Under the pieces are notes generated by a model that searched no databases, was not told the DNA's origin, and saw only the letters and a program-made list of their open reading frames with translations. DNA of 34,285 bases from Eubacteriales bacterium (GTDB lineage: Bacteria; Bacillota; Clostridia; Oscillospirales; QAKW01). A program made the translations under genes and the position numbers. Where the stretch lies: assembly GCA_045544795.1 (NCBI GenBank), contig JAZPZR010000017.1, positions 1-34,285 of the forward strand, given 5' to 3'. This document shows positions 166 through 26,385 of the stretch, piece after piece (the stretch's first letter is position 1; each line of letters starts with the position of its first letter).

Positions 166-206
166 TTTCATAATCAATATTGTGTTTTGGAGGATTCACT
201 TTTAAA

Positions 207-1763: not shown

Positions 1764-1778
1764 TATACAGAGGTAAAT

Positions 1779-2795: not shown

Positions 2796-3330
2796 AATTA
2801 TTGAAAAAGTAAAAGAGCTCGGCGCACACAAGTGCGCGTTTATCGACGCAAAGGATATTAAAACCGACCGCGCCTTTCGTGACATGTGCGAAATGAACTC
2901 ATGCGGTGTGTACGGCAAGTGTTACATGTGCCCGCCTGACGTGGGTGATATTGAAATGCTTATGAACGAGATCACAAGCTACGACCGCGCGTTTGTGTAT
3001 CAGACGGTGTCAGAGCTTGAGGACAGCTTTGATTTCGAGGGAATGGCAGCTGCAAAAAAGCGCACCTATCCCCTCGCGCAGGCACTGAGGTCTGTATTCT
3101 GCGAGGCGGGTATCACTGACGCACTTCACCTCGGCGCAGGCGGATGCGGTGTTTGCAAGGTATGTGCAAAAAGGACGGATGAGCCCTGCAGATTTCCCGA
3201 TAAAGCGATGCCCTCGCTTGAGGCATACGGCATAAACGTATCCGAGCTTGCAAAAGCCGCGGGCATGAAATATACTAACGGACAAAACACCGTCACCTAT
3301 TTCGGTGCTGTGTTATTTAAGGAGAAGTAA
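2785..3330 (+). CDS. DUF2284-like Cys-rich predicted metal-binding protein
   Basis: CxxNxCxxYGxxxxCPP and GxCxxCxxC..C..P...PSLEAYGI motifs; start taken at ATG 2785, overlapping the upstream gene end. Confidence 0.75.
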   Translation: MENKIIEKVKELGAHKCAFIDAKDIKTDRAFRDMCEMNSCGVYGKCYMCPPDVGDIEMLMNEITSYDRAFVYQTVSELEDSFDFEGMAAAKKRTYPLAQALRSVFCEAGITDALHLGAGGCGVCKVCAKRTDEPCRFPDKAMPSLEAYGINVSELAKAAGMKYTNGQNTVTYFGAVLFKEK

Positions 3331-3331
3331 T

Positions 3332-4417
3332 ATGAGTATAAATATGGATAAGCTTGCTGAGCGTTACGAGAGCTTCTGGAACCGTGAAAACGAGGACAGA
3401 CCTATCGTAAACATGACTACAAGAGCGTACAGGATACCTGTTGAGCTTGACGAAAAGCACAAGACCTTCCGCGATGCTTGGCTTGATACCGAGTACGTTA
3501 TCAAAAAGGCAAGACAGTCGATGGATGCCACCGTTTATCTGGGCGAAGGCTATCCCGCGCTCAACCCCAACCTCGGCCCCGACCTTGTCGGTGCTGTCTG
3601 CGGCTGCGAGATCGAATTCGGTGAGATAACAAGCTGGGCAGAGCCGTGTATTGAGGATTACGAGGCGTTTGGCGAAATAAAGTTTGACGAAAACAATCCT
3701 TATTGGAAAAAGATATGCGAGATAACACAGGCGGCGCTTGACGATTCAAAGGGTGACTACGTAGTCGGAATTACCGACCTTCATCCCGGCGGCGACGCGG
3801 TGGTTTCTCTTCGCGGCTCGGAAAATTCCGCATTTGACCTTTACGATTATCCCGATGAATTCAAAAAGACGGTGTGGGATATATTTCCCGTTTTCAAGGA
3901 GATGACCGCCCGTCTTCACAATATGATATCTGAAAAGCAGAAGTTTTGTTCCTGCTGGATGGGCGTTATCCACCCGACAGAGCTGTGGTACCCCACATCC
4001 TGCGACTTTTCCTGCATGATATCACCCGATAATTATAAGGAATTTATTCTGCCCGAGCTTTTAGAGGAGATAAAGTGGCTTCCCAACTCCATTTATCACC
4101 TTGACGGACCTGACGCTCTGCGCCACCTCGACACCCTGCTTGAAATAAAAGAGCTCAAGGGTATTCAGTGGGTATACGGCGCAGGTCAGCCCACCGCAAA
4201 GCATTGGATAGACGTGTATAAAAAGATTCAGGCTGCCGGCAAGGTCGCGCAGATAGGCTGCAGCGCAGAAGACCTCATCCCGCTTTGCGAGGCGCTCGAC
4301 CCCCGCGGTGTACATATAAGATGCGGTGTGCCCGACAGGGAAAGCGGTGAGCATCTTATTGCCGAGATGGAAAGAATTTGCAAGCAAAAACGCGGTCAGT
4401 TTTCGTTTGTGAAATAA
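3332..4417 (+). CDS. Second UroD/MetE-like TIM-barrel protein, candidate substrate-specific corrinoid methyltransferase
   Basis: NLGP, DLHPGGD, SCDFSCMISP, YHLDGP and IQWVYGAG motifs typical of UroD-like proteins in corrinoid operons; RBS AAGGAG before ATG 3332. Confidence 0.65.
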   Translation: MSINMDKLAERYESFWNRENEDRPIVNMTTRAYRIPVELDEKHKTFRDAWLDTEYVIKKARQSMDATVYLGEGYPALNPNLGPDLVGAVCGCEIEFGEITSWAEPCIEDYEAFGEIKFDENNPYWKKICEITQAALDDSKGDYVVGITDLHPGGDAVVSLRGSENSAFDLYDYPDEFKKTVWDIFPVFKEMTARLHNMISEKQKFCSCWMGVIHPTELWYPTSCDFSCMISPDNYKEFILPELLEEIKWLPNSIYHLDGPDALRHLDTLLEIKELKGIQWVYGAGQPTAKHWIDVYKKIQAAGKVAQIGCSAEDLIPLCEALDPRGVHIRCGVPDRESGEHLIAEMERICKQKRGQFSFVK

Positions 4418-6075: not shown

Positions 6076-8370
6076 ATGTCAGTCATCATTTTAAAGCCGG
6101 ATCAGGGCGAAAAAGCATACTCGCACGCGGCAGATGCGTTTTGCAGACTTTACACGCTTGTCACAGGCAAAGAAATATCCGTAACAGAGACGGACGACGG
6201 TGTTTCCGACCTTATCGTGATAGGCTCGGACGCGGTAAACGATTTTGTGGCGGGCGAAGTGCTTGAGCTTCGCATAGAAAGTCTTGGGATCCGCTACGGA
6301 ACAGACGATTACTGCATACGCTCGCACAGGCAGGGAAAGCGCCGTGCGCTCATTCTTGCGGGCGGGCGCGGCCGTTCAACGCTTTATGCGGTGTACGATT
6401 ATTTCGAGCGTTTTGCAGGCTGTCACTATTTCTGGGACGGTGACGTTATCCCCCACCGTGACGGCTTGCCGTTGGATGACATTGATATTGTCGAATCTCC
6501 CCGCTTTGAATACAGAGGACTTCGCTACTTCGCCCACCGCGGACTCAAGCGTTTTCAGGCAGAGCACTGGTCGTTTGAGGACTGGAAGCGCGAGCTTGAC
6601 TGGATGACAAAGCGCAGGCTCAACTTTTTCATGCTGAGAATCGGTATGGACGACGTGTGGCAACGCGCTTTTCCCGATGACGTCCCCTACCCCGACGGTT
6701 ATCGCACGGTAACGGGTACCGATGCCGAGGGGTATAACGACCGTACTGATTTCTGGACGCTCAAATACCGCGGTGAGCTTCGTATAAAGATACTTGAATA
6801 CGCACGGGAACTTGACCTCATCTACCCTACCGACTGCGGCACGATGACGCATTGGTACAGCCGCACGCCCGAAAGCTTTCTTGAAAGCAAAAAGCCGGAT
6901 TTCTGTATACAGGAGATCGCGCAGTACACCGCTTCTGACACGGGACGTGTTTTTGATTTTACCAAAAAAGAAGGCATGGATCATTACATGCATCTTACAG
7001 AAACGATGGTAAAGGAGCACGAAAAGCAGACGGGGCTTTTCCACACCATAGGTCTGGGTGAGCGGAGAATGTTCACAGACCCCAGGAAAAATCTCGCGCT
7101 CAAGCTTATTGCATACCGCAGGATAGCGCAGAATATCCGTACCCGCTTTCCCGATGCAAAACTGATGCTTGCAAGCTGGGATTTTGTGGGTTGGTGGACC
7201 TCGGAAGAAATGCAGACGCTGATTGCCGAGCTTGACCCCGCAAAAACGATAATACTCGACTACACGTCCGAGGTAGACGACCCCGACGTAAGCTTTTTAA
7301 GCTGGGGTGTTGTCAAAAAATTCCCGTGGATATTCGGTCTTTTTCACGCCTACGAGTCGGACAGTGAGCTGCGAGGTCCCTACGACCGTTCGGACGAGAG
7401 GCTGAAAATTGCCGCAGACGACCCCTACTGTCAGGGCATGATACTGTGGCCTGAGCTTTCGCACAGTGACCCGCTTGTATTGGAATATCTTGCGCACAAT
7501 TCGTGGAATCCGCTTGAAAAACCGGTAGAAGAGCTTATAAACGGCTTCTGTCACAACCGCTACGGCGGATATGCCGATATCATGAACGAAAGCTGGCAGC
7601 AGCTGTTGCCGTTTATAAAGCTGAACGATTGGGGCGGTTATTCCCGCCGCACGCCCGATGATGAAAAGTATCTCGACTATCTTCCTAAAAAATTCCTGCA
7701 TCACGACCTGTGGGCAAAGCCGATCTACTTTTTAAAGAGGATCGACGGTGAGGACGGCGCGGTAATCGAGCAGTATTTTGATATAAAGAGAGAGCAGTAT
7801 CTTGGCGTTATTGAACAATCGATAACGGCGCTTGAACGCCTTTTTGCAATGGACGGCGCGTTTGACAATAAGTTTATTTTGAGAGACGCTGTTGACCTTA
7901 CCCGCACGGTGCTCGGCAGAATGATAAGCCTTTTGCTTGTCAGATGCCATAAGGCGCGCCGCGATAAAGAGCAGTTTGAAAAGGTGACGGCACTCTATTT
8001 TAATGCGCTGAAGGTGATGGGCGCTCTCCTTAGCGTAAACTCTGACTTTTCGATATATCAGTCACTTAAAGAGCTTGAAAAGGCAGCGCCCGTCAATCCC
8101 GATTTCGAGGTGGCGCTTAAGAGAAACATCTACAACAGATACTGCGCACAACCCGCATACGAGCTGGTAATGCACTATTTTGACAAGCTCGGAAAGGCGG
8201 TATTTGATCATATGCAAAAGCCGTACGATATAGATAAGGCAGAAATTGAGATAAACAGGCATTTTGAGAGTATCCCGCTTGAAAGCATGCAGCCGACAGA
8301 GATACCATCACCCGCCGATGCAATAAAAAACGCGACCGAGTGTGTAAAAACAATTGCAAAAATGATATAA
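6076..8370 (+). CDS. GH89-like (alpha-N-acetylglucosaminidase-like) glycoside hydrolase, no signal peptide
   Basis: N-terminal GH20/GH67-type domain (GRGRSTLYAVYDYFE); WSFEDWKRELDWM..LN resembles the GH89 W.W..WEREIDWM motif; candidate catalytic Glu in IGLGE and LWPE. Confidence 0.6.
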   Translation: MSVIILKPDQGEKAYSHAADAFCRLYTLVTGKEISVTETDDGVSDLIVIGSDAVNDFVAGEVLELRIESLGIRYGTDDYCIRSHRQGKRRALILAGGRGRSTLYAVYDYFERFAGCHYFWDGDVIPHRDGLPLDDIDIVESPRFEYRGLRYFAHRGLKRFQAEHWSFEDWKRELDWMTKRRLNFFMLRIGMDDVWQRAFPDDVPYPDGYRTVTGTDAEGYNDRTDFWTLKYRGELRIKILEYARELDLIYPTDCGTMTHWYSRTPESFLESKKPDFCIQEIAQYTASDTGRVFDFTKKEGMDHYMHLTETMVKEHEKQTGLFHTIGLGERRMFTDPRKNLALKLIAYRRIAQNIRTRFPDAKLMLASWDFVGWWTSEEMQTLIAELDPAKTIILDYTSEVDDPDVSFLSWGVVKKFPWIFGLFHAYESDSELRGPYDRSDERLKIAADDPYCQGMILWPELSHSDPLVLEYLAHNSWNPLEKPVEELINGFCHNRYGGYADIMNESWQQLLPFIKLNDWGGYSRRTPDDEKYLDYLPKKFLHHDLWAKPIYFLKRIDGEDGAVIEQYFDIKREQYLGVIEQSITALERLFAMDGAFDNKFILRDAVDLTRTVLGRMISLLLVRCHKARRDKEQFEKVTALYFNALKVMGALLSVNSDFSIYQSLKELEKAAPVNPDFEVALKRNIYNRYCAQPAYELVMHYFDKLGKAVFDHMQKPYDIDKAEIEINRHFESIPLESMQPTEIPSPADAIKNATECVKTIAKMI

Positions 8371-8414: not shown

Positions 8415-8616
8415 AAATTGTGGTTTTGCGGGATGAAAAGCCTCCCTTGCCTAAAGGGAGGGGGACCGAGCTTGCTCGGTGGAGGGATTTAGTTTTTACG
8501 TAAAAACATTGTAAATACAAGTATTTTTGCATCTTTGAATCCCTCAGTCTCGCATACGCTCGACAGCTCCCTTTACAAGGGAGCCTAAGGTTTGTTTCCC
8601 CGTTAAACCGCAATTT
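8415..8616. mobile_element. ~200-bp MITE/REPIN-like element: terminal inverted motifs enclosing an inverted pair of double-hairpin repeats
   Basis: Left end AAATTGTGGTTTTGCGGGATG, right end reverse complement AAATTGCGGTTTAACGGGGAA; inner units 8438..8489 (+) and 8538..8586 (-) share CTCCCTTG..AAAGGGAG + second hairpin + GAGGGATT. Confidence 0.65.
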
Positions 8617-9388
8617 ATCTGTTTTTATTTTGTTTTGAATAGTTTACGGGACTTATGCCTGTGTACTGTCTGAACATTTTTGAAAAGTGGTAGATACTGT
8701 TATACCCCACACTTTCCGCCACCTGCCCGACCGATTCAAAGTCGCTGTTTAAAATCGCCTTTGCCTTTTGTATACGCAGGTTGTGCAGATACTTCATCGG
8801 CGGTACACCGTAAACCGACACAAAGCATTTTCTGAAATAGACGGTGCTCATTTTGCAAAGTTCTGCCAGCATATCGTTTGTAACGTTACTGTCAAAATAC
8901 TGCGTGTGTATATAATCTGTCGCGGGCTTCAGTACAAGCGCTTTTTGCGGATGTACAGGCTCCGCTTGTGCCGATCTTATCAGAAAAAGCAAAATTTCAT
9001 ACAGGTAATAATAGCACTCCGTCTTTTTGGAACCAAGGCTTTTTTCGATTTTTTCAAAATCATTTATGATAAGTGAGTTATCTCTTATTTCAAAGCAGTC
9101 AAAATCGGAAAGCGTGCTGTTTGCATCAAATTCGATAAGGATGCACTCGCCCGCCTTTGTACACTCCCACGAGTAGTCGCATCCCTTCGGCAAAATCACG
9201 GGATGATAGCGGTCGGACAGCACCTTTTTATTACCTACAGTATAAATCGTTTCGCCTTTTACCTTAAGTACAACCGCCCAGCTTTTGCGGTTGTGTCTGT
9301 GAGTTGTAATTCCGACGGGAGAATTTAGCAGACGGTTGGCAGAAAATATATTTGTGACGGTCAGATCAGAAACAGAGCTTATAAACAA
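8615..9388 (-). CDS. AraC-family transcriptional regulator
   Basis: C-terminal AraC HTH (MSTVYFRKCF..PMKYL..VAESVGY..HFSKMF..G.SP); TTG start with RBS GAGGTG; divergent from the 9518..14336 operon. Confidence 0.9.
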   Translation of the reverse strand: MFISSVSDLTVTNIFSANRLLNSPVGITTHRHNRKSWAVVLKVKGETIYTVGNKKVLSDRYHPVILPKGCDYSWECTKAGECILIEFDANSTLSDFDCFEIRDNSLIINDFEKIEKSLGSKKTECYYYLYEILLFLIRSAQAEPVHPQKALVLKPATDYIHTQYFDSNVTNDMLAELCKMSTVYFRKCFVSVYGVPPMKYLHNLRIQKAKAILNSDFESVGQVAESVGYNSIYHFSKMFRQYTGISPVNYSKQNKNR

Positions 9389-14381: not shown

Positions 14382-14420
14382 AAAAAACGGAACAGGCAAA
14401 ACAATGCCTGTTCCGTATTT
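14382..14420. terminator. Bidirectional intrinsic terminator
   Basis: Stem ACGGAACAGGCA / TGCCTGTTCCGT between convergent genes; homologous to the terminator at 28591..28630. Confidence 0.85.
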
Positions 14421-14521: not shown

Positions 14522-16837
14522 CTATTTCAAAGGACAGTTAACTATACATTTTTCGCCTGTGACAGGTCTGAATTTGAATACGGGGTCCTGCTGACGAAGT
14601 GCATCTGCAAGATTATCCGCGGTTATAGTTTCGGGGCAGGGGATATCGGTAAAGTTACCCGTGTACATGTTACCTTCCTCAGCAACAAGCGCAAATCTTG
14701 TTGCCCAGTCACAGCGGAGCGCATCTACAGGAAGGTAGGTGATCTTTTTACCCGCGACGTCAAGCTCTGTAAGTCTTTCCTTTTTGAGCGCGCCCGTGGG
14801 ACATACGGTAAGGCACTTTTCACAGCCTGCGCATGCAGCCGCAAGACCTTCCTTCACCTCGTCGCTTTCAAGGTCGGCATTGGTAACGATAGCAACAAAG
14901 CGCTGATGTATTCCGTACTCCTCAGTTACAACAGAGCCGTTAAGCGCCATTTTGCCGATTCCCGCGCAGACCGCCTCAAGCGCGTTACAGGATGCGTCGT
15001 TAAACTGACCGCGGGGACTTCCGACAGTCGAGCCTGCGCCCGTGAGATTATGCGAGTAGACCGCCTCGTAGCCGAGCGCATTGAGGCTTCTGCATACCGA
15101 GTATGCAAGATGGCCTGTCAGTCTGTTTACCTCATACTGCGTAAATACGTACGGTCCTACCGACTCTGCAGGCGGCTTGCCGACACGCTCTGCAGGTGTT
15201 TCGGGGTAATGCATACCGAGTACGATGACCGACTTTGCGTCCTTGAGATAGTCGCTCATATTGTTAAACTCCCTTTTTTCCTCCGTAACTACAGGGTCAA
15301 AGGGCATCATACGTGTATTTTTATCTTCAACGACAAGCTGTTTTTCGTCCTTGCGGATGCTTCTTAACTGCTCTACTATTGAATCAATATCCTTTGCGGA
15401 TGCAACGCCGAAGAGGTCTGCGCCTTTATCCTTGGCAAGCTGTCTGAGCTGTGCCTTGAGATTTTTGGCGGGCGCTATGGATGAAAGGTCGGTTGCCGCT
15501 TTATCAACAAAAGGAGCAGAGGTAAGTACGAGCGAGGTACGGATAAACGTATTTTCCGTCTTTTCGACCTTGCAAAGAGCACGGAACGGCTCATGATCCA
15601 TTCTTGTCTTGGGAAGCGCGGAATAACCGAGTGTTTCAAGCTCACGGCAGACGTCAAGCTCGGTAAAGTCAACGTTGAACTGCGCGATCCTTCCGTAGCT
15701 GTCAAGCGCGCTTGCGCGTGTTTTATGACAGCTGTCAAAGCTTTCGATATGCGCCATGCTTCCGTCATGGTCTATCTTCGCCTCTGCGGGAAGCTGATAG
15801 CGTGAGGTGAGCAGTATCGCGCCGACACCGTCGGGAAGCTCTGTTTTAATATCAATTCCCGCGCCTTCAAGCGACTCTTTTGATATAAAGTGTACGCTGT
15901 CAAGGTCCCATGCGCTTGCATGAGAGAGAACCTTATCGTATACCTGACGGTGCACGTCAAGCTCCGAGGGTGTCACGTGGCGGATGCGTCTTGCCGTCTT
16001 TTTGCAGTAATCCTCATCCCAGTTGCGAAGATGCTTTGGCAGACAGACCTTAAGGCAGACACCGAACTCACCGCCGCGCATTCCGTATTTTGCAACGTGC
16101 TCAAGAAGCACCTTTTCGTCCACCTTTTCGGGAATGGGAAGGTCGAGGTCGATATCAAAATGCTCGCCCCATGCACAGCGCCAGAGATTTTTGTTGCAGA
16201 AGATGTGGTCCTTGCCCTCTATCACAACGTTTTTTGTGCCGTTTACTTCCTTGCGGTATGCGTTTGTCGGACATTTTCTTATACACTCGCCGCACAGGTC
16301 GCAAAGCTTGGGACCGTTGTAAAGGGGAGTAGGTGTCAGCTCCGCCTCTGTGATAATTGAAATAAATCTGTTTCTTGCGCCGTATTCGGGAGTGATGCAA
16401 AGACCGTTCCAGCCAAGCTCACCGAGGCCCGCGCAGACCGCGCTGTAGATATGGCTGATATCGGGCGCAAAGGTCGCGTCCATCTCTTTATATCCGCGGT
16501 ATCTCCATATATTCGAGCTTGCTATCGGCACCGTCTCATAGCCGAGATCGTCAAGCATTCTCGCAATTTTAAAGGAAAGCACGTCAAGCTTGTCGTTCAT
16601 TATGTACTGAATACGGTAAGGACCCATCACCTGCGGATGAACCTCGCCGTCAAGCTCAATTGCTGCATCGGGATGATGTACCGCGCAGACTATAACCGAC
16701 TTTGCCGTAGGCAGAATTCCCTGCGGACTCATCTTTATCGGCGCATTCTCGTAGCGTTCAATATTTGCAATACCCACAAGGTCTGCGCCGAGACTGTAGG
16801 CAAGCTTTTTGACTTTTAAAGTAAGACTGTTTTCCAT
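14522..16837 (-). CDS. Multi-module epoxyqueuosine-reductase (QueG)/reductive-dehalogenase-superfamily protein, predicted cobalamin and Fe-S binding
   Basis: Two full modules, each GADL.G.A / AKSVIV / AVCAG(L/I)G / TxEYG / RF..I.T / CxxCxxCxxxCP / C.W / CxxxC, plus a degenerate middle module; start at the second ATG, 7 nt from AAGGAG. Confidence 0.8.
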   Translation of the reverse strand: MENSLTLKVKKLAYSLGADLVGIANIERYENAPIKMSPQGILPTAKSVIVCAVHHPDAAIELDGEVHPQVMGPYRIQYIMNDKLDVLSFKIARMLDDLGYETVPIASSNIWRYRGYKEMDATFAPDISHIYSAVCAGLGELGWNGLCITPEYGARNRFISIITEAELTPTPLYNGPKLCDLCGECIRKCPTNAYRKEVNGTKNVVIEGKDHIFCNKNLWRCAWGEHFDIDLDLPIPEKVDEKVLLEHVAKYGMRGGEFGVCLKVCLPKHLRNWDEDYCKKTARRIRHVTPSELDVHRQVYDKVLSHASAWDLDSVHFISKESLEGAGIDIKTELPDGVGAILLTSRYQLPAEAKIDHDGSMAHIESFDSCHKTRASALDSYGRIAQFNVDFTELDVCRELETLGYSALPKTRMDHEPFRALCKVEKTENTFIRTSLVLTSAPFVDKAATDLSSIAPAKNLKAQLRQLAKDKGADLFGVASAKDIDSIVEQLRSIRKDEKQLVVEDKNTRMMPFDPVVTEEKREFNNMSDYLKDAKSVIVLGMHYPETPAERVGKPPAESVGPYVFTQYEVNRLTGHLAYSVCRSLNALGYEAVYSHNLTGAGSTVGSPRGQFNDASCNALEAVCAGIGKMALNGSVVTEEYGIHQRFVAIVTNADLESDEVKEGLAAACAGCEKCLTVCPTGALKKERLTELDVAGKKITYLPVDALRCDWATRFALVAEEGNMYTGNFTDIPCPETITADNLADALRQQDPVFKFRPVTGEKCIVNCPLK

Positions 16838-16865
16838 AAGCATACTCCTTCATTTTATTGTCTAA

Positions 16866-16874
16866 ATTATATCA
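16866..16874 (-). promoter_or_regulatory. Extended -10 for the QueG-like gene
   Basis: Minus strand TGaTATAAT with a poor -35, consistent with activator dependence. Confidence 0.55.
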
Positions 16875-16931
16875 GGCAAATACTTTGCGTAAAAGAGACA
16901 AAACGACCTTTTTTTCGTAAAAATCAAGCAT

Positions 16932-17962: not shown

Positions 17963-18745
17963 ATGAAAGTTGTAATTCTGGCAGGCGGCTTCGGCACCCG
18001 TATAAGTGAAGAATCACAGTTTAAGCCAAAGCCAATGATAGAAATCGGCGGAAAGCCTATTCTCTGGCATATAATGAAGCAATATGCTTATTACGGATTT
18101 AACGAGTTCGTCATATGTGCAGGATATAAACAGCACGTCATCAAAGAGTGGTTTGCCGATTACTTTTTGCACAACAGTGACATCACCTTTGACTTTACAA
18201 ACGGCACCAATGATATGATAATTCACAATCAGCACTGCGAACCGTGGAAGGTCACCGTTGTTGACACAGGTCTTAACACCATGACAGGCGGCAGGATCAA
18301 GCGTATAAAGCGTTATATCGGTGACGAGCCGTTTATGATGACCTACGGTGACGCCGTATGCGACGTTGATATTGCCAAGCTTGTAAAATTCCATAAGGAG
18401 CACGGTAAGATCGCAACGCTTACCGCTGTAACGCTTGCACAGGAAAAAGGTGTTCTTGACATTGACGAGGACAACTCGGTAAGAGCGTTCCGTGAGAAAA
18501 ACAAGCATGACGGCGCGCGTATCAACGCGGGCTATATGGTTCTTGAGCCTGAGATATTTGATTATATCAAGGGTGACAGCACCGTATTTGAAAAATCACC
18601 TCTCACAAGCCTTGTAGAAAAGGGTGAGCTTATGTCGTACATGCACAAGGGCTTCTGGCAGTGCATGGATACTAAGCGTGAGAAGGAAATGCTTGAGGAT
18701 TATCTTGAAAAAGGAACTGCCCCTTGGAAAAAGTGGGAAGATTAA
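17963..18745 (+). CDS. rfbF: Glucose-1-phosphate cytidylyltransferase
   Basis: LAGGFGTRISEES..KPKPMIEIGG, TMTGGR, TYGD, GFWQCMDT, APW. Confidence 0.95.
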   Translation: MKVVILAGGFGTRISEESQFKPKPMIEIGGKPILWHIMKQYAYYGFNEFVICAGYKQHVIKEWFADYFLHNSDITFDFTNGTNDMIIHNQHCEPWKVTVVDTGLNTMTGGRIKRIKRYIGDEPFMMTYGDAVCDVDIAKLVKFHKEHGKIATLTAVTLAQEKGVLDIDEDNSVRAFREKNKHDGARINAGYMVLEPEIFDYIKGDSTVFEKSPLTSLVEKGELMSYMHKGFWQCMDTKREKEMLEDYLEKGTAPWKKWED

Positions 18746-18751
18746 AAAATT

Positions 18752-19798
18752 ATGGATCTATCGTTTTATAAAAATAAAAAAGTATTTGTAACGGGTCACA
18801 CCGGCTTTAAGGGCACGTGGCTTTGCCGTATGCTCGTAGGCGCGGGCGCAATCGTTACAGGCTACAGTCTTGAGCCGCCCACAGACCCCAATCTGTTTTC
18901 CCTTGCGGGTCTTGAGGGTAAAATGACAAGCGTTATCGGTGATATCCGCGACCTCGCTTCGTTAAAGGCGGCATTTGATAAGGCTCGTCCCGAAATCGTG
19001 CTTCACCTTGCCGCGCAGCCTATCGTCCGCGACAGTTATAAGGATCCGCACTACACCTACGAAACAAACGTAATGGGTACTGTAAACATACTTGAATGTG
19101 TGCGTCTTTCCGACTGTGTCAAAAGCGTGCTTAACGTAACGACGGACAAGGTCTACCGCAACAACGAATGGTGCTGGGGTTACAGAGAAGACGAACAGCT
19201 CGACGGCTTTGACCCTTATTCAAATTCAAAAAGCTGCTCTGAGCTTGTTACACACAGCTATATAAACAGCTTTTTTACAGATAAGATCGCGGTATCTACC
19301 GCAAGAGCAGGTAACGTGATCGGCGGCGGCGATTTTGCCAACGACCGAATAATACCTGACTGTATACGCGCTATGGCAGACAAAAAGGTCATTGCCGTAC
19401 GCAACCCTTATTCCACACGTCCCTATCAGCACGTGCTTGAGCCGCTTTCGATGTATCTTATGATCGCGCAGAGGCAGTATGAGGACAAAAAGTACGCAGG
19501 CTTTTATAACGTCGGTCCTGACGACTGTGACTGTGTCACCACAGGTGAGCTTGTAGATCTTTTCTGCAAATACTGGGGCGAGGGCGCTTCGTGGGAAAAT
19601 CAGGCGGAGGCAAATGCGCCGCATGAGGCAAACTTCTTAAAGCTTGACTGCTCCAAGATCAAATCGGTATTCGGCTGGTCACCGCGCTGGCATATTGACG
19701 AGTGTATGGATATGACCTGCCGTTTCGGTAAGGTATGGCTTTCAGGCGGTGATATTCCTGCTGAAATGGACAGGGAGATCCAAGAGTTTTTGAAATAA
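18752..19798 (+). CDS. rfbG: CDP-glucose 4,6-dehydratase
   Basis: VTGHTGFKGTWL, HLAAQP, TTDKVY, DPYSNSK, RAGNVIGGGD, RPYQHVLEPL, HEA..LKLD. Confidence 0.95.
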   Translation: MDLSFYKNKKVFVTGHTGFKGTWLCRMLVGAGAIVTGYSLEPPTDPNLFSLAGLEGKMTSVIGDIRDLASLKAAFDKARPEIVLHLAAQPIVRDSYKDPHYTYETNVMGTVNILECVRLSDCVKSVLNVTTDKVYRNNEWCWGYREDEQLDGFDPYSNSKSCSELVTHSYINSFFTDKIAVSTARAGNVIGGGDFANDRIIPDCIRAMADKKVIAVRNPYSTRPYQHVLEPLSMYLMIAQRQYEDKKYAGFYNVGPDDCDCVTTGELVDLFCKYWGEGASWENQAEANAPHEANFLKLDCSKIKSVFGWSPRWHIDECMDMTCRFGKVWLSGGDIPAEMDREIQEFLK

Positions 19799-19809
19799 TT
19801 TCTGCATCG

Positions 19810-19844
19810 AAATCAAAGGGCAGTAATCATGCCCTTTGATTTTT
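19810..19844 (+). terminator. Terminator-like hairpin between rfbG and rfbH
   Basis: 13-bp stem AAATCAAAGGGCA / TGCCCTTTGATTT ending in a T run. Confidence 0.7.
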
Positions 19845-19926
19845 GTGCATTATATAATATAATTTTTCTCCGCAATTACGGGAAAAATAATATATACCAA
19901 TTCACTTAAACAGGGAGATTATTAAT

Positions 19927-21270
19927 ATGGCTATCTGGAAAAATGAACAAGAGGCTAGAGAGCAGATAAAAGCGCTCGTTGCTGAATATTATCATGATTT
20001 CAAAGAGAAAAAAGAGCCCTTCAAGGCAGGCGACCGTATCACCTACGCTTCGCGTGTATTTGACGAAAAGGAAATGTGCGCGCTCACTGATGCGACTCTT
20101 GATTTCTGGCTTACTACGGGTAGATTTGCAGACGAATTTGAAAAGAGCTTTGCCGAGTGGATAGGCGCTAAATACGCGCACCTGGTAAACAGCGGTTCAT
20201 CTGCAAACCTTATCGCGTTTATGACACTTACCGCACCCGAGCTCGGCGACCGTCAGGTAAAGCGCGGTGACGAGGTCATCACTGTTGCCTGCGGCTTCCC
20301 CACAACAGTAACGCCTGTTCTTCAGTACGGCGCAGTGCCTGTTTTTGTTGACGTTACCGTTCCGCAGTACAATATCGACGTAACACAGCTTGAGGCTGCG
20401 CTTTCAGACAAGACAAAGGCAGTCATGGTTGCACACACCCTCGGCAATCCCTTCGATCTCAAGGCTGTAAAGGAATTCTGTGACAAGCACGGACTCTGGC
20501 TTGTAGAGGACAACTGCGATGCGCTCGGTACACAGTACACCATCGACGGTGTTACCAGGTTCTCAGGCACCTGGGGTGATATCGGTACTTCAAGCTTCTA
20601 TCCTCCCCACCACATGACAATGGGCGAGGGCGGATGTGTATACACAAACAACGCTCAGCTCCACAGACTTATCCTCTCATATCGTGACTGGGGACGTGAC
20701 TGCATCTGTCCTTCAGGTATGGATAACTTCTGTAAGCACCGCTTTGACGGTCAGTACGGCGAGCTTCCGCAGGGCTACGACCACAAATACGTGTACAGCC
20801 ATTTCGGTTACAACTTAAAGGTTACCGACATGCAGGCTGCAGTAGGCTGCGAGCAGCTTAAGAAGTTTCCGTCATTTATCGAAAGACGCCGTCACAACTG
20901 GGACAGACTCCGCAAGGCGCTCGAATGTGTTGAGGATAAGATCATTCTTCCCGAGCCCGCAGAGAACAGCCGTCCTTCATGGTTTGGCTTCCTTATTTCA
21001 GTACGCGAGGGCTCAGGTCTTGACAGAAACGAGGTCACACGCTTTATTGAGGACAATAACGTTCAGACTCGTCTTCTCTTCTCAGGTAACCTTATCAAGC
21101 ACCCCTGCTTTGACCAGATAAGAGGAACTGACGCTTACCGTGTTGTCGGTGATCTTTCAGGCACTGACTTTATTATGAACAACACCTTCTGGGTAGGCGT
21201 ATATCCCGGCATGACAGACGAGATGATAGACCATATGGCAAAGGTCATCATTGAAGCTGTCAGCAAATGA
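19927..21270 (+). CDS. rfbH: CDP-4-keto-6-deoxyglucose 3-dehydrase (E1, DdhC; PMP and [2Fe-2S])
   Basis: NSGSSANL, EDNCDALG, SFYPPHHMTMGEGG (His in place of the aminotransferase Lys), DWGRDCIC....DNFC, YDHKY. Confidence 0.95.
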   Translation: MAIWKNEQEAREQIKALVAEYYHDFKEKKEPFKAGDRITYASRVFDEKEMCALTDATLDFWLTTGRFADEFEKSFAEWIGAKYAHLVNSGSSANLIAFMTLTAPELGDRQVKRGDEVITVACGFPTTVTPVLQYGAVPVFVDVTVPQYNIDVTQLEAALSDKTKAVMVAHTLGNPFDLKAVKEFCDKHGLWLVEDNCDALGTQYTIDGVTRFSGTWGDIGTSSFYPPHHMTMGEGGCVYTNNAQLHRLILSYRDWGRDCICPSGMDNFCKHRFDGQYGELPQGYDHKYVYSHFGYNLKVTDMQAAVGCEQLKKFPSFIERRRHNWDRLRKALECVEDKIILPEPAENSRPSWFGFLISVREGSGLDRNEVTRFIEDNNVQTRLLFSGNLIKHPCFDQIRGTDAYRVVGDLSGTDFIMNNTFWVGVYPGMTDEMIDHMAKVIIEAVSK

Positions 21271-22631
21271 AACGGGGCTTTGATCTGATCAATAAGATAA
21301 CACCCGTACGTCTTTTTTACGGCGCGCTTGCAATTTTGATTGCGCTGACGGTCATACAGCTTCCCGTTCAGGACGGAAAAGCGTTCTTTTCCCTGCTCCA
21401 CAGTGATAAAAACGATATTTTTATGGATTTTTTCAACAGCATCTACGATGCAGGCTTTGAAGATCCGTATGCAGAGCGCGGTGTGATATACCCGCCGCTT
21501 GCATATCTGTTTTACAGACTGTGCGGGTATCTGTTCCCGCAGGGCGCCGATGCGTTTTCGATGCGCAACTCACAGACGGGCATTGTCACGGCATGCGCTG
21601 TGACGGTATTTTCGGTTTTTATACTTTACAAGATTTTTCTGCCCGAAAAAGCCGATAATAAAGAAAGAAGAAAGGTGCTTGCCGTTTTACTTGCGACAGT
21701 ACCCTTCTGGTATACGTTTGAACGCGGTAATATAATTTTACCGACGCTCGTATTTCTTGCATACTTTGTACAGAATTACAAAAGCGAAAGCAGGATAAGG
21801 CGTGAGCTTGCGCTCATCAGCCTTGCAATTGCCGCCGCGCTTAAGATCTATCCCGCAATTTTCGGGATAATACTTATTACAGAAAAACGTTTTAAGGATG
21901 CACTGCGGTGCATCCTTTACGGAATAATACTGTTTTTTGTTCCGTTTCTGTTTTTCGGCGGTTTTTCATCACTCATTACCATGCTTGGCAATATCACGTC
22001 GACGGGGGTCGACATGTTCAGCCGCGGCACAGGCTACAAGGTCAATATCGACAATACGCTTCGGTTTATTTCCGAGGCGCTTCATATAAGTCCTGTCGGC
22101 GCCGACGCGGTCAAGGTAATATTTGCCCTTATCACAGCGTTTATATTCTTTTTTTCAAAAAAAGCATGGCAAAAATATATGGCGCTTTGCTCGGTGATGA
22201 TAATTTTTCCCGCCTTCAGCTATACATACACCCTTATTTTTATTGCGATTCCGTTTTTTGCATTTGTTTTTGATAAGCCAAAAACAAATACGAGAAACCT
22301 GACCTTCAGCCTGCTGTTTTTATGCATGCTCGCTCCCTTTCCGCTGGACGGTGAAAAGCTGTTTGACTCAGCGCCGCACAGCGTCTACTTATTAAATCTT
22401 ACGACTGTCATTTCAAGCATTGCAATTCTTACAATGCTTGTTGCGATATTATTGGATATGATTTATACTGCAAAACGCCCGCACACGCAAAACAAAACGT
22501 TTTCTTTAAAAGGCGGTGCCGTTTCTATGGCATATATAAAATTTGCAATTTTAGTTGCCATTATTGTAATTTTATTTATTGCAGGCTATCTGTACTGTGA
22601 CCGTCTTTACAATACAGCAGCCTCATTATAA
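21267..22631 (+). CDS. GT87/DUF2029-like multi-TM GT-C glycosyltransferase (lipid-phosphate-sugar donor)
   Basis: Many hydrophobic helices; DFFN, YPPL, ERGN and LKIYP motifs; ATGA overlap with rfbH. Confidence 0.75.
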   Translation: MKRGFDLINKITPVRLFYGALAILIALTVIQLPVQDGKAFFSLLHSDKNDIFMDFFNSIYDAGFEDPYAERGVIYPPLAYLFYRLCGYLFPQGADAFSMRNSQTGIVTACAVTVFSVFILYKIFLPEKADNKERRKVLAVLLATVPFWYTFERGNIILPTLVFLAYFVQNYKSESRIRRELALISLAIAAALKIYPAIFGIILITEKRFKDALRCILYGIILFFVPFLFFGGFSSLITMLGNITSTGVDMFSRGTGYKVNIDNTLRFISEALHISPVGADAVKVIFALITAFIFFFSKKAWQKYMALCSVMIIFPAFSYTYTLIFIAIPFFAFVFDKPKTNTRNLTFSLLFLCMLAPFPLDGEKLFDSAPHSVYLLNLTTVISSIAILTMLVAILLDMIYTAKRPHTQNKTFSLKGGAVSMAYIKFAILVAIIVILFIAGYLYCDRLYNTAASL

Positions 22632-22674
22632 TTGAGCTTTTCCCCAAAAATAACTTAAAAGATAGGAGAAACCC

Positions 22675-24507
22675 GTGAAAATAAGACTGGCAGATTATGT
22701 TGCAGACTTTTTAGTATCAAAAGGAGTTACCGACGTATTTTCAGTAGTCGGCGGCGGTGCAATGCATCTTAACGACGCACTCGGCCACAACGAAAATCTT
22801 AAGGTTACCTATAACCATCATGAGCAGGCATGTGCTATCGCTGCCGAAGCATATGCAAGACTTGACAATAAAATTGCGGCGGTTTGTGTCACCACAGGCC
22901 CCGGAGGCACCAACGCGCTTACAGGTGTCGTAGGCGGCTGGCTCGACTCTATTCCCATGTTCGTCATCAGCGGTCAGGTAAGATATGACACAACTGCGCG
23001 CTATGCGCTTTCATACACCGAGACACCGCTTCGCGCAATGGGTGATCAGGAGTACGACATTGTAAAATCTGTTGAGCATATGACAAAATATGCCACAATG
23101 ATAGAAGACCCCAAGGATATCCGTTACGCGCTTGAAAAGGGCTGGCACCTTGCTACAACGGGCAGACCCGGTCCCGTCTGGATAGACATTCCCGTAAACT
23201 TCCAGGGCGGATATATCGAAACTGACGAGCTTTACGGCTACGACCCGACAGAAGACGACAAGCTTTTGCCCCCGCCCGTTGAGGACAGCGTTATCGACTC
23301 GGTCATCGGGCAGATAAAGGCGGCAAAGCGCCCTGTTTTCCACGCAGGCTACGGCATCCGTCTCTCAGGCGCATACGACACCTTCAGAGAGGTTGCCAAG
23401 AAACTGAATATCCCGATAGTTACCTATTGGAACGCAGTCGACCTTATCGAAGACGAAAACCCGCTTTACTGCGGAAGAGCAGGTAACATGGGCGACCGCG
23501 CGGGCAACTTTGCTATACAGAACGCAGACCTTATCCTTGCGATAGGCACACGAATCTCTATCCGTCAGGTAGGCTATAACTGGCAGACCTGGGCGCGCGA
23601 GGCAAAGGTCATCATGGTCGACATCGATAAAGCTGAGCTTAAAAAGCCTACGCTTCACGTTGAGATGCCTGTCTGGGCTGATGCAAAGGACTTTCTTGAA
23701 AAGCTCAATAAAAAAGCAGAAGGACCTCTCTTTAACGATTCGCTCTGGCTTGACACCTGCGCACGTTGGAAGCGCGAATATCCCGTTGTCCGTGACGATC
23801 AGTGGCAGGAGAACGGCACTACCGCAAACGTGTACGCATTTGTACGCTATCTCAGCTCACGTCTTCCCGAAAACAGCCTTACCGCTGTATCAAACGGCGC
23901 GTGCTGTGTTGTCGGCAACCAGGCGTACGTTATCCAGAAGGGCAGCCGTATGGCAAACAACAGCGCTATCGCAAGCATGGGCTACGGTCTTCCCGCTGCG
24001 ATAGGTACATGTATCGGCGGCGGCAGAAAAGAAACCATCTGTCTTGAAGGTGACGGCAGTATCATGATGAACCTTCAGGAGCTTCAGACGATTCTTACAA
24101 ACAAGCTTCCTATAAAAATATTCCTTATAAATAACGGCGGTTATCATTCCATCCGCATAACACAGACAAATCTGTTTTCAAATCATTGTAAGGTAGGCAT
24201 CGGTGAGGAGTCGGGCGACCTCTCCTTCCCGCAGTTTGAACTGCTTGCAAAAGCATTCGGCTATCCCTACTACAGCGCAAAGAGCAACGCGGAAATGAAG
24301 TCTGTTGTTGACACGGTGCTCTCGCTTGACGGTCCTGTTTTCTGTGAGATATTCACAGACACCGTACAGGTATGGGAGCCCAAGAGCTCGACCAAGCGTC
24401 TTGCAGACGGAACACTCGTTTCTCCGCCTCTTGAAGACCTTGCGCCCTTCTTACCGAGGGAAGAGCTTAAAAAGCAGATGTTTATTCCTATGATCTCAGA
24501 AGAATAG
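22675..24507 (+). CDS. ThDP-dependent acetolactate-synthase-like enzyme (YerE-like carboligase by context)
   Basis: HHEQ..A.AAEAY, TTGPGGTN, GRPGPVWIDIP, SMGYGLPAAIG, GDGS...NN ThDP motif; GTG start with AGGAG; embedded in a CDP-deoxysugar cluster. Confidence 0.85.
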   Translation: MKIRLADYVADFLVSKGVTDVFSVVGGGAMHLNDALGHNENLKVTYNHHEQACAIAAEAYARLDNKIAAVCVTTGPGGTNALTGVVGGWLDSIPMFVISGQVRYDTTARYALSYTETPLRAMGDQEYDIVKSVEHMTKYATMIEDPKDIRYALEKGWHLATTGRPGPVWIDIPVNFQGGYIETDELYGYDPTEDDKLLPPPVEDSVIDSVIGQIKAAKRPVFHAGYGIRLSGAYDTFREVAKKLNIPIVTYWNAVDLIEDENPLYCGRAGNMGDRAGNFAIQNADLILAIGTRISIRQVGYNWQTWAREAKVIMVDIDKAELKKPTLHVEMPVWADAKDFLEKLNKKAEGPLFNDSLWLDTCARWKREYPVVRDDQWQENGTTANVYAFVRYLSSRLPENSLTAVSNGACCVVGNQAYVIQKGSRMANNSAIASMGYGLPAAIGTCIGGGRKETICLEGDGSIMMNLQELQTILTNKLPIKIFLINNGGYHSIRITQTNLFSNHCKVGIGEESGDLSFPQFELLAKAFGYPYYSAKSNAEMKSVVDTVLSLDGPVFCEIFTDTVQVWEPKSSTKRLADGTLVSPPLEDLAPFLPREELKKQMFIPMISEE

Positions 24508-24520
24508 ATTGGAGACTTGT

Positions 24521-25450
24521 ATGTCTTTAAGACAAATCAAAAAAGCAGTTGTAACAGGCCCTACAGGCGCTATCGGTATTGCGCTCTGTAACGAGCTTGC
24601 GTCAAACGGCATCGAGGTTATTGCAGTATGCCGCGAAGGCTCGGCAAGGGCTGATTCGTTGCCGGACCACCCGCTGATAACAAAGGTGTTTTGTGATATC
24701 AGCCGTCTTGAAAACTTAAAAGAGCTTGTAGTACGCGCCGATGCATTTTTCCATCTTGCGTGGGCACATACGATAGGCGAGGGAAGAAACGACATGAGCG
24801 CGCAGATCGCCAACATGCAGTACACTATTGATGCGGTGCGTGTGGCAAGTGCGCTGTCCTGCTCAGTCTTTGTCGGCACAGGCTCTCAGGCTGAATTCGG
24901 CAGAGTCGACGGTGTTATAACGCCTGCCACCCCCTGTTTTCCCGAAAACGGCTACGGTATTGCAAAATATTCTGCAGGCAGAATGGCAAGAATAGAATGT
25001 GAAAAGCTTGGTCTTGACTTTGAATGGGTGAGGATATTCAGCGTTTACGGTCCGCACGACGGTCCGCTTACAATGGTGTCATCGGTAATAACAAAGCTTT
25101 TAAAAGGCGAAAAGCCGTCACTTACCGCAGGCATTCAGCTGTGGGACTATCTCTATTCGGGTGATGCGGCGCGTGCGCTCATGCTTGTGGCACAAAAAGG
25201 TGTGCACGGCAAGACCTATCTTGTTGCAAACGGTCAGTCGCGCAAGCTTTGCGAATATATTTATATTATCCGCGACAGCATTGACAAGGATCTGCCGCTC
25301 GGAATCGGGGATATACCCTATCCCGACGGTAAGATAATAAATCTTCAGGCGGATATTTCAGAGCTTTGCGAAGATACAGGCTTTAAGCCGCTTACCGATT
25401 TCAGATCGGGAATTGCAAAAACCATTGATCATATCAGGGGGACTTTATAA
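24521..25450 (+). CDS. NAD(P)-dependent sugar epimerase/reductase (extended SDR)
   Basis: VTGPTGAIG, HLAW, GSQAE, YGIAK, R.FSVYGP; RBS GGAG. Confidence 0.85.
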   Translation: MSLRQIKKAVVTGPTGAIGIALCNELASNGIEVIAVCREGSARADSLPDHPLITKVFCDISRLENLKELVVRADAFFHLAWAHTIGEGRNDMSAQIANMQYTIDAVRVASALSCSVFVGTGSQAEFGRVDGVITPATPCFPENGYGIAKYSAGRMARIECEKLGLDFEWVRIFSVYGPHDGPLTMVSSVITKLLKGEKPSLTAGIQLWDYLYSGDAARALMLVAQKGVHGKTYLVANGQSRKLCEYIYIIRDSIDKDLPLGIGDIPYPDGKIINLQADISELCEDTGFKPLTDFRSGIAKTIDHIRGTL

Positions 25451-26385
25451 TGGCTAAAACGATATCTGTAATGATTCCTTGCTACAACGAGGAAGAAAAC
25501 GCGCGACCCATTTACGAGGCGGTACGCGATGAGCTTAAAAAAAACTGCAGTGACTATAATTATGAGATCCTGTTTATCGACAATAAATCAACAGACAGAA
25601 CCCGCGAGATAATCAGAGAGATCTGTAATGAGGATAAAAACGTAAAGGCGATATTAAACTCAAAGAACTTCGGTCAGTTTAACAGCCCCTATTACGGCAT
25701 TATCAACACGACAGGCGACTGCACTATCACCATCTGCGCTGATTTTCAGGATCCTGTTGAAATGATCCCGCAGTTTGTTGCCGAATGGGAAAAGGGTTAT
25801 AAAATAGTTATCGGTAAAAAGACACGCAGTAAGGAAAGTAAGATAATGTACTTCCTTCGCGGCTGCTATTATAAGATCATCCGTAAAATGAGCAGTGTTG
25901 AGATGATCGAGCAGTTTACAGGCTTCGGTCTTTATGACAAAAGCTTTGTAAAAACACTCAGAGAGCTTGGTGACCCGACCCCCTTTATCCGCGGTATCGT
26001 GGCAGAGCTTGGTCCTGAGCGTAAAGAAATTGAGTATGAACAGCCTCAGCGCCGCGCCGGTAAAACGCACAACAACTTTGCAAGCCTTTACGATGCGGCA
26101 ATGCTGTCTTTTACAAGCTACACCAAAACGGGTATGCGCGTTGCAACCTTCCTCGGCGTATTCTTTGCTATGCTCAGCATAATTGCAGGCATCGGACTCG
26201 GAATTGCAAAGCTCATACTGTGGAACAGCTTTTCACTCGGTCAGCTTCCCGTTATACTGGCTATATTCTTTATAGGCGGTATTCAGCTTGGATTTATGGG
26301 ATTTTTGGGCGAGTATATCCTGACAATGAACACACGTATCATGAACAGACCTCTTGTAATCGAGGAAGAGCGCCTGAATTTTTAA
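25450..26385 (+). CDS. GT2 polyprenol-phosphate glycosyltransferase (GtrB/DPM1-like)
   Basis: IPCYNEE, IDNKSTD, NFGQ, ADFQDP, R.AGK, two C-terminal TM helices followed by GEY...RP. Confidence 0.9.
   Translation: MAKTISVMIPCYNEEENARPIYEAVRDELKKNCSDYNYEILFIDNKSTDRTREIIREICNEDKNVKAILNSKNFGQFNSPYYGIINTTGDCTITICADFQDPVEMIPQFVAEWEKGYKIVIGKKTRSKESKIMYFLRGCYYKIIRKMSSVEMIEQFTGFGLYDKSFVKTLRELGDPTPFIRGIVAELGPERKEIEYEQPQRRAGKTHNNFASLYDAAMLSFTSYTKTGMRVATFLGVFFAMLSIIAGIGLGIAKLILWNSFSLGQLPVILAIFFIGGIQLGFMGFLGEYILTMNTRIMNRPLVIEEERLNF

Follow-up and report, generated by a model that had tools for sequence, protein, structure and literature searches.

What does it mean when both complete modules of a B12-type reductase lack the same iron–sulfur cysteine: has one gene decayed, or is the gap a feature of a family? 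The question is posed by a minus-strand gene on a 34,285-nucleotide contig (JAZPZR010000017.1 of assembly GCA_045544795.1; this whole stretch is hereafter the window) from an Eubacteriales bacterium of the Oscillospirales. A first-pass annotation had read the gene as a three-module relative of the epoxyqueuosine reductase QueG and of the reductive dehalogenases (RdhAs), with one canonical cysteine missing from each complete module. We find that the product is a soluble three-module reductase related to the B12 dehalogenases and to QueG, built from two full cores and one stripped copy, and that the enzyme is a new variant inside a known class, from a large family. Local decay does not account for the missing cysteine, whose absence is conserved: the remaining pattern is invariant among close homologues and near-invariant among distant ones.

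Three modules and their predicted fold

The open reading frame (ORF) specifies two complete modules, M1 and M3, on either side of a cluster-free segment, M2 (Table 1). M1 and M3 (residues 470–773) are 31% identical across 216 residues by BLASTP (E 8e-28), and a profile comparison of their cores with hhalign gives E 9.8e-51. BLASTP of M2 against M1 and M3 returned nothing significant, the best result being a 13-residue match at E 0.009. Its homology to the cores is revealed by profile comparison only, with a probability of 99.6% (E 1.8e-24) against the M1 core and of 99.4% (E 1.2e-21) against the M3 core. By this measure M2 is a true third, degenerate copy of the core, from which the SNIWRYR..PD.SH loop, the AGLGE.GW.GL loop and the entire ferredoxin part have been lost. 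The arrangement of a full, a degenerate and a second full module proposed at first pass is thereby upheld, and the M2 strings then quoted are, given the significant profile match, remnants of the third core copy.

Constraint is unevenly distributed over the three modules. We used two alignments, one of 26 homologues at 50–88% identity (A1) and one of 36 cluster representatives at 28–46% identity (A2); paired counts below are given in that order. The mean top-residue frequency is 0.81 in the M1 core, 0.67 in the M3 core and 0.49 in M2 in A1, and 0.59, 0.49 and 0.29, respectively, in A2. Core columns that are at least 90% conserved number 93 of 170 in M1 versus 49 of 191 in M3 in A1, and 23 versus 17 in A2. 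Beyond its cysteines, M1 holds D59, D182 and T165 invariant, and in M3 the cysteines, A685 and G724 are all that is invariant across A2. The most conserved part of the protein is the M1 core, a domain of the type that binds cobalamin in QueG and RdhA. Because M1 is the most constrained module and M3 keeps few invariant residues in A2, M1 looks like the principal catalytic module, and this stronger constraint weakens the notion of two equal active sites.

The best two NCBIfam matches of the protein are the reductive dehalogenase model TIGR02486 (106.7 bits in two stretches; cut-off 160.35) and the QueG model TIGR00276 (65.5 bits; cut-off 200), and by these curated thresholds it is a member of neither family. 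The best sequence matches in the PDB were to PceA (5e-9 and 1.8e-8) and QueG (3.4e-8 and 8.1e-8). An AlphaFold2 model built with 26 homologues (mean predicted local distance difference test score (pLDDT) 80.6; predicted template modelling score 0.87) shows a nitroreductase-like core and, after it, a two-cluster ferredoxin domain in each complete module. Foldseek ranked NpRdhA first (1.7e-10), then PceA and QueG, at a probability of 1.00. VIA-align, in which rows less than 1 Z apart count as tied, placed M3 (458–773) on QueG residues 2–250 (Z 17.4; root-mean-square deviation (r.m.s.d.) 4.0, 231 aligned), M1 on QueG 2–263 (Z 16.7), residues 375–773 on PceA 100–393 (Z 16.8) and M2 (292–444) on flavin mononucleotide nitroreductases (Z about 8); the fit of the whole model to 6ZXU was poor (Z 15.6, r.m.s.d. 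13.7 Å over 361 residues). The B12 chaperone MMACHC scored Z 8.9 against 8.5 or less for flavin nitroreductases, which is within the tie margin. As VIA-align and Foldseek both rank QueG, PceA and NpRdhA on top, the predicted fold places the protein in the class-III (RdhA/QueG-type) cobalamin/iron–sulfur reductase superfamily, where the first-pass annotation had put it.

Comparison with characterised members of this superfamily shows what the protein shares with each and where it departs from them. Each complete module superposes on the cobalamin-binding and ferredoxin domains of QueG (B. subtilis 5D08/5D0A, S. thermophilus 5D6S) at Z 16.7–17.4, and both proteins have the order CxxCxxCxxxC ... 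C ... CxxxC and an AG[IL]G..N...TPEYG block; the best-conserved block in common with PceA and QueG reads AG[LI]G..(W)NG...TPEYG.R.R. Unlike QueG, the protein has no HEAT-like tRNA-binding domain, because the chain ends three residues past its last cysteine (C770), and M1 continues into a core copy. A DYH motif is absent from its sequence, and the column of the QueG catalytic aspartate holds H131 in M1 (25/26, 30/36) and N620 in M3 (23/26, 28/36). It also differs from QueG in lacking a counterpart of Cys240, in having three cores per chain and its own regulator, and in falling under the TIGR00276 cut-off. PceA (4UQU, 8Q4H) is the best PDB sequence match and a structural match at Z 16.8. Set against PceA, our protein has no Tat signal, RdhB or N-terminal unit, carries seven and not eight cysteines, is arranged in tandem and scores under the TIGR02486 cut-off. 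A twin-arginine motif and a hydrophobic segment are both absent from its sequence (maximum Kyte–Doolittle 19-residue mean, 1.23), and the flanks of the gene contain no small membrane ORF and no room for an RdhB-like gene, in agreement with the cytoplasmic location first proposed.

One active-site residue sides with the dehalogenases. R159 of M1 aligns to PceA Arg305 by an ungapped count anchored on Cys329 and is invariant in all 62 sequences (26/26, 36/36); its M3 counterpart, R648, is kept in 50 of the 62 (22/26, 28/36). Tyr246 and Arg305 are given as the RdhA proton-transfer pair, and QueG as lacking such an arginine, in the part of PMC4646009 available to us, and on this basis the family is RdhA-like as to its conserved arginine. 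Candidates for the active-site tyrosine are Y76 or Y80 in M1 and Y565 or Y570 in M3, with Y565 present in 33/36 sequences of A2. The catabolic enzymes NpRdhA, JtRdhA and BhbA (4RAS, 6ZXU) are likewise cytoplasmic and of monomer type with a vestigial duplicate core, which the accessible text of PMC10463259 describes for NpRdhA. In our protein, by contrast, the vestigial core is enclosed by two complete modules and a PDOR reductase domain is absent; the hosts are anaerobic gut Clostridia and not aerobic Proteobacteria.

A conserved seven-cysteine pattern

Each complete module contains CxxCxxCxxxCP, a lone cysteine in an RC.W context and CxxxCP. Where QueG and RdhA read CxxCxxxC, the cysteine three residues ahead of CxxxC is absent in both M1 and M3, and translation confirms the two motifs, FGVCLKVC and GEKCIVNC, in which the gap was first noticed. 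All fourteen remaining cysteines are invariant in A1 (26/26); twelve of them stand at 36/36 in A2, and C681 and C711 at 35/36. Across the 62 sequences of the two alignments, the column of the missing residue holds F, M, V or I in M1, with no cysteine, and G, A or V in M3, with a single cysteine. Homologues thus do not retain the eighth cysteine, which rules out local decay, and conservation of the seven-cysteine pattern is far beyond chance.

The same region was scored in 160 full-length family proteins (700–860 amino acids), which yielded 158 copies of M1 and 159 of M3. No cysteine occurs in the six residues before CxxxC in 153/158 M1 copies and 133/159 M3 copies. In M1, cysteine is found at −1 in 4/158 copies, at the canonical −3 in 0/158, at −5 in 0/158 and at −6 in 1/158; the corresponding M3 counts are 8/159, 1/159, 15/159 and 2/159. 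The M3 cysteine at −5 is found in 15 of 42 distant representatives and in none of the 117 close relatives scored. These counts indicate that the loss is universal in M1, where it is probably ancestral, and fixed in M3 within the clade of the studied protein, and that M3 retains a Cx4CxxxC form in some members of the wider family. The description of one cysteine missing from both complete modules consequently stands for this protein and the 117 close relatives scored and does not extend to the whole family.

Other cysteines do not make up the difference. The extra M1 residue C216 (IFCNK), put forward earlier as a possible substitute, occurs in no more than 8/26 and 3/36 sequences and is ruled out as a conserved eighth ligand. 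So is the extra M3 residue C736 (DIPCPE), which the first-pass annotation had not listed (13/26, 1/36), and the distant set conserves neither C53 nor C619.

Six single-module relatives are encoded in the same genome, three in tandem on contig C186, two on C64 and one on C103 (298–370 amino acids, 27–34% identical to M1). They have the same core and ferredoxin layout and occur in tandem sets, but every one of them keeps at least eight cysteines, in the form CxxCxxxC, Cx4CxxxC or close variants, so that within this genome the seven-cysteine state is specific to the three-module protein. The paralogues on C186 and C103 adjoin a cysteine-rich protein of 310–362 amino acids without a Pfam match (L087 65–997, L083 1296–2384), and those on C64 adjoin a divergent AraC-like gene.

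The position of the gap in the motif suggests which cluster is affected. As far as the text of PMC5175355 was available, B. subtilis QueG has the motif Cys188-X2-Cys191-X2-Cys194-X3-Cys198-Xn-Cys214-Xm-Cys240-X2-Cys243-X3-Cys247, in which Cys198, Cys214, Cys240 and Cys243 are ligands of the cobalamin-proximal cluster and Cys188, Cys191, Cys194 and Cys247 those of the distal cluster. By its place in this motif, the absent residue is the counterpart of Cys240, and its absence leaves the predicted proximal cluster with three cysteines and the distal one with four, in both modules. A near-invariant glutamate in each module is close in sequence to a cysteine of the predicted proximal site. E227 of M1 (26/26, 33/36) is four positions past C223, on a helix predicted in the AlphaFold2 model (220–227). 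E764 of M3 (25/26, 34/36) directly follows the missing-cysteine position and precedes C766 by two residues; the two are our best candidates for a non-cysteine fourth ligand, as a hypothesis only.

A dehalogenase with one [4Fe–4S] and one [3Fe–4S] cluster is, we assume, CprA of Desulfitobacterium dehalogenans. RdhAs with this pair of clusters are mentioned in the consulted part of PMC6095959, so a cluster short of one ligand has precedent within the superfamily. Those enzymes resemble our protein in a motif one ligand short, but they are single-module, Tat-exported and respiratory, whereas the present protein is cytoplasmic and tandem, and the loss in its two complete modules is fixed in its clade.

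The gene, its regulator and its surroundings

Table 1. Features of the reductase gene and its product, with positions in the window (those of the paralogues refer to their own loci).
Feature	Position	Strand	Basis or remark
B12-type reductase ORF, 773 amino acids plus stop	14522..16843	−	ORF translation
Likelier start of the reductase (second ATG; 771 amino acids)	16837	−	Ribosome-binding-site spacing
Ribosome-binding site AAGGAG	16845..16850	−	
Promoter-like site TTTACG-16-TATAAT with TG, upstream of the reductase gene	16866..16893	−	Consensus match only
12-bp hairpin with T runs on both strands; two-way terminator between convergent genes	14387..14416	.	
Divergent AraC-family regulator, 270 amino acids	16976..17788	+	132 bp from the reductase gene
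M1, complete module, residues 1–290	15974..16843	−	
M1 core, residues 1–170; nitroreductase-like alpha/beta domain with D59, H131, AGLG (138–141) and R159	16334..16843	−	
M1 ferredoxin-like part, residues 171–290; seven conserved cysteines	15974..16333	−	
M1 motif CDLCGECIRKCP; C181, C184, C187, C191	16268..16303	−	Translation
M1 C223 (WRCAW) through E227; C223 is the QueG Cys214 counterpart by position	16163..16177	−	
M1 FGVCLKVC; F260 at the canonical first-cysteine position, then C263, C267	16043..16066	−	Translation
M2, residues 300–465 (~296–465); degenerate third core copy without AGLG loop or iron–sulfur cysteines	15449..15946	−	
M3 core, residues 470–660; Y565, N620, AGIG (627–630), R648	14864..15436	−	
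M3 ferredoxin-like part, residues 661–773; seven conserved cysteines	14525..14863	−	
M3 motif CAGCEKCLTVCP; C671, C674, C677, C681	14798..14833	−	Translation
M3 C711 (LRCDW)	14711..14713	−	
M3 GEKCIVNC; G763 at the canonical first-cysteine position, E764, then C766, C770	14534..14557	−	Translation
Single-module paralogues	L087 1000–2082; L084 200–1096, 1093–2028; L088 68–1180, 1183–2094; L083 299–1348		

Two in-frame ATG codons (16835–16843) could open the gene. The first, at 16843, follows the ribosome-binding site by a single nucleotide and the second, at 16837, by 7; this spacing makes the second the likelier start, the one that the first-pass annotation had used. Most homologues are 772 amino acids long. 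The hairpin parts the gene from a convergent zinc-dehydrogenase gene, and with this two-way terminator downstream the reductase gene is a monocistronic unit. The window has no match in Rfam. Three short contigs, 97–99% alike, in one metatranscriptome library cover parts of the gene at a depth of 3–9; DNA carry-over is possible, and they are weak evidence of its expression.

Relatives are numerous. A near-length search returned 598 proteins at E ≤0.001, nearly all of 745–790 amino acids, and an exhaustive search 2,089 representatives at E ≤0.001, of which 169 were at ≤1e-30; a scan of species-representative genomes gave 231 pattern matches, and 192 of these were confirmed to encode a relative. 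The hosts are mostly metagenome-assembled genomes of Oscillospiraceae and other Clostridia from animal guts and digesters, with a few Spirochaetes, and family matches of 290–475 amino acids mostly resemble contig-end fragments. One full-length homologue, 50% identical, lies on a 4,162-base contig (L033) in a bin labelled 'uncultured thaumarchaeote'; all other matches are bacterial, and the label is likely a case of mis-binning. ESM Atlas clusters carry the names 'hypothetical protein' and 'epoxyqueuosine reductase (fragment)' only. Full-text literature searches found no paper on the family; the supplements of PMC12219181 might list relatives in its 'cytosolic' group. The 'novel clade' of the same source was rejected as this family, being in the text available a membrane-anchored group with transmembrane helices and RdhB.

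We read the gene neighbourhoods of 38 of 44 loci; L020, L023, L025, L073 and L077 gave no target ORF, probably owing to frameshifts or contig ends, and L056 duplicates the layout of L055. The first ORF upstream of the gene is a divergent AraC gene at 18/38 loci, a co-directional AraC gene at 1/38, a co-directional IclR gene at 10/38, a YesM-type histidine kinase at 3/38, GH20 at 2/38 and something else at 4/38, so that a regulator lies directly upstream at 32/38. Along its entire length the AraC protein of the window matches the divergent AraC proteins of the ten closest loci at 57–69% identity; it is 37% identical to that of L027 and 22–29% identical to those in the clade of 45% identity. Judged by these identities, the AraC co-diverges with the reductase while the outer flanks change. 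The proposal of a dedicated divergent regulator is therefore sustained by its proximity and by the orthologues beside close homologues.

Carbohydrate-related genes occur within two ORFs of the reductase at 19/38 loci. They include GH20, GH28, GH39, GH4, NAGLU, sulfatase, NamZ and PIG-L, together with aldose epimerase, sugar ABC permeases, GFO/IDH/MocA, xylose-isomerase-like barrels, DHquinase_I and galactokinase. Within the window, the segment 8615–14336 holds a second AraC gene (8615–9388, minus strand) and, divergent from it, an operon (DHquinase_I-like protein, zinc alcohol dehydrogenase, GFO/IDH/MocA, NAD-epimerase and zinc alcohol dehydrogenase/quinone reductase) that converges on the reductase gene; a DHquinase_I and epimerase pair is also convergent at L038, the locus of a 45%-identical homologue. 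A NAGLU (GH89-like) protein of 764 amino acids is encoded at 6076–8370 (plus strand), and NAGLU-like genes lie within two ORFs of the homologues at L040 and L062.

Directly after the AraC gene is a polysaccharide locus (17963–26385, plus strand) for a sugar-1-phosphate nucleotidyltransferase, a 4,6-dehydratase, a DegT-type protein, a GT87-like membrane protein, a thiamine-pyrophosphate enzyme, an epimerase and a GT2 protein, the first three of which we take to resemble a CDP-dideoxyhexose set. At the start of the window (180–4417, plus strand) is a 527-amino-acid protein that combines an AraC ligand-binding domain, an AraC helix-turn-helix and a full B12-binding pair (B12-binding_2 and B12-binding). 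Next come genes for a URO-D/MtaA-like methyltransferase, a DUF2284 metal-binding protein and a 370-amino-acid protein without a Pfam match, so that the first protein may be a corrinoid sensor and regulator at the head of a set for corrinoid methyl transfer.

Proposed function and competing explanations

Our preferred reading, to which we assign a probability of about one half, is that the protein, soluble and induced through AraC, belongs to an uncharacterised third branch of class-III corrinoid/iron–sulfur reductases and acts on a small-molecule substrate that is probably linked to the breakdown of sugars or glycans. Reduced ferredoxin would pass electrons to the distal four-cysteine [4Fe–4S] cluster of a module, and from there they would move to the proximal cluster, held by three cysteines (C191, C223 and C263 in M1; C681, C711 and C766 in M3), and on to a base-off cobamide in the nitroreductase-like core. 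A cobamide in that position is suggested by the conserved blocks and the ranking of fold matches. Co(I) would then attack the substrate while the RdhA-type arginine (R159, R648) and a nearby tyrosine assist protonation. The fourth site of the proximal cluster would either be empty, giving [3Fe–4S], or be filled by a non-cysteine ligand, for which E227 and E764 are the candidates. M1 would serve as the main catalytic module and M2, a vestigial core, as a structural interface in the manner of NpRdhA; M3 could be either a second site under weaker constraint or the module through which electrons enter.

Several observations weigh against this reading. The protein scores under both the RdhA and the QueG cut-off in NCBIfam, and Pfam recognises Fer4-type domains only, with QueG_DUF1730 at 22 bits against a cut-off of 25.1. 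The active-site tyrosine cannot be placed, as hidden Markov model alignments of QueG and PceA put it on different columns. The last 14 residues of the model, including C766 and C770, have a pLDDT below 50. E227 and E764 occupy non-equivalent positions (position −2 is Gly in M1, and position +4 in M3 is Lys, Ser or Thr), and E764 is retained even in sequences with the −5 cysteine, which is why we keep the glutamate ligand at the level of a hypothesis. Neighbours past the regulator are not conserved across the 38 loci, and the substrate class is for that reason a lead only. Neither the window nor these loci encode a ferredoxin or other electron donor beside the gene. Finally, searches of the window's genome, which is 81% complete, found neither CobS nor CbiB, so that a cobamide would need to be salvaged. 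The five B12-binding domains of the genome, one of them within the window, indicate that it uses corrinoids, and a cobamide salvager would fit as host.

That these late cobamide-assembly genes were not found is also among the arguments for an iron–sulfur enzyme free of cobamide, in which the cores no longer bind a corrinoid and a three-cysteine cluster with a free iron would itself bind the substrate and reduce or dehydrate it, by chemistry of the IspH, IspG, aconitase or QueH type. IspH, IspG and aconitase use three-cysteine clusters; the ligand lost here belongs to the cluster that would face the active-site pocket; in M1, which is conserved more strongly than any other module, that loss is universal; and the family falls under the RdhA and QueG cut-offs. 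We nevertheless hold this to be unlikely, since every structural match at the head of the ranking (Z >15) is a cobalamin enzyme, the AGLG..G..TPEYG.R block in common with the cobalamin domains of PceA and QueG is the best conserved in both modules, the RdhA-type arginine is invariant in M1, and an enzyme that worked with its cluster only would be oddly built on a distal relay cluster and a large core; the MMACHC match, being tied with flavin nitroreductases, does not add to this case. Doubtful to the same degree is a protein with a single catalytic module, the other complete one being an electron-transfer or pseudo-dimer partner and the three-cysteine sites plain potential-tuning [3Fe–4S] clusters. 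The far greater constraint on M1 than on M3, with so little of M3 invariant in A2, speaks for it, as do the duplicated core of NpRdhA, which serves only as an interface in the available account (PMC10463259), and the RdhAs with one [3Fe–4S] cluster (PMC6095959, as far as available). However, M3 keeps the AGIG loop, R648, Y565 and seven cysteines, which exceeds what an interface needs, and M2 of the same protein exemplifies what a vestigial copy looks like. A further, slightly more speculative variant of the third-branch proposal lets the site-differentiated cluster (three cysteines plus glutamate or an open iron) take part in catalysis, binding the leaving oxygen function while Co(I) attacks carbon, so that a sugar-derived or cyclitol-like substrate would be reductively deoxygenated at two sites per chain; if true, this chemistry would be new to carbohydrate catabolism.

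The two established activities of the superfamily fare worse. A reductive dehalogenase for natural gut organohalides would agree with RDH as the best NCBIfam match, with the retained Arg305 counterpart and with the catabolic RdhAs, which are also cytoplasmic with a vestigial core and, in the portion of PMC12219181 at hand, are reported beside IclR/MarR regulators and galactose degradation genes. Yet the score lies under the RDH cut-off, and no characterised RdhA has this architecture and cysteine pattern. The neighbouring genes encode glycoside hydrolases, sulfatases and sugar dehydrogenases, none of them being an aromatic or haloacid gene, and the family is common in fermentative gut Clostridia; we regard a true dehalogenase as improbable. 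An isoenzyme of QueG that reduces epoxyqueuosine in tRNA is more improbable still. Some sources name relatives 'epoxyqueuosine reductase QueG', and no QueG over the cut-off was found in this 81%-complete genome. Against it stand the TIGR00276 score, the lack of a tRNA-binding domain (structural matches stop at QueG residue 250–263) and of DYH, and the His or Asn in the catalytic-aspartate column. Epoxyqueuosine reduction is moreover already provided for, because the genome has QueH (240.9 bits) and QueA (344.8 bits), and a dedicated AraC or IclR regulator would be unexpected for a tRNA-modification gene. This supports the first-pass reading, in which the protein is not simply QueG.

To our knowledge, dehalogenation and epoxyqueuosine reduction are the only established reactions of class-III cobalamin enzymes. 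The conserved three-cysteine proximal site offers a sharp, testable handle on the chemistry of this family, and its dedicated AraC and IclR regulators offer a route to the substrate. Identifying the reaction would add a third class-III chemistry and might bring to light a step of gut metabolism that is newly found to depend on cobamides.

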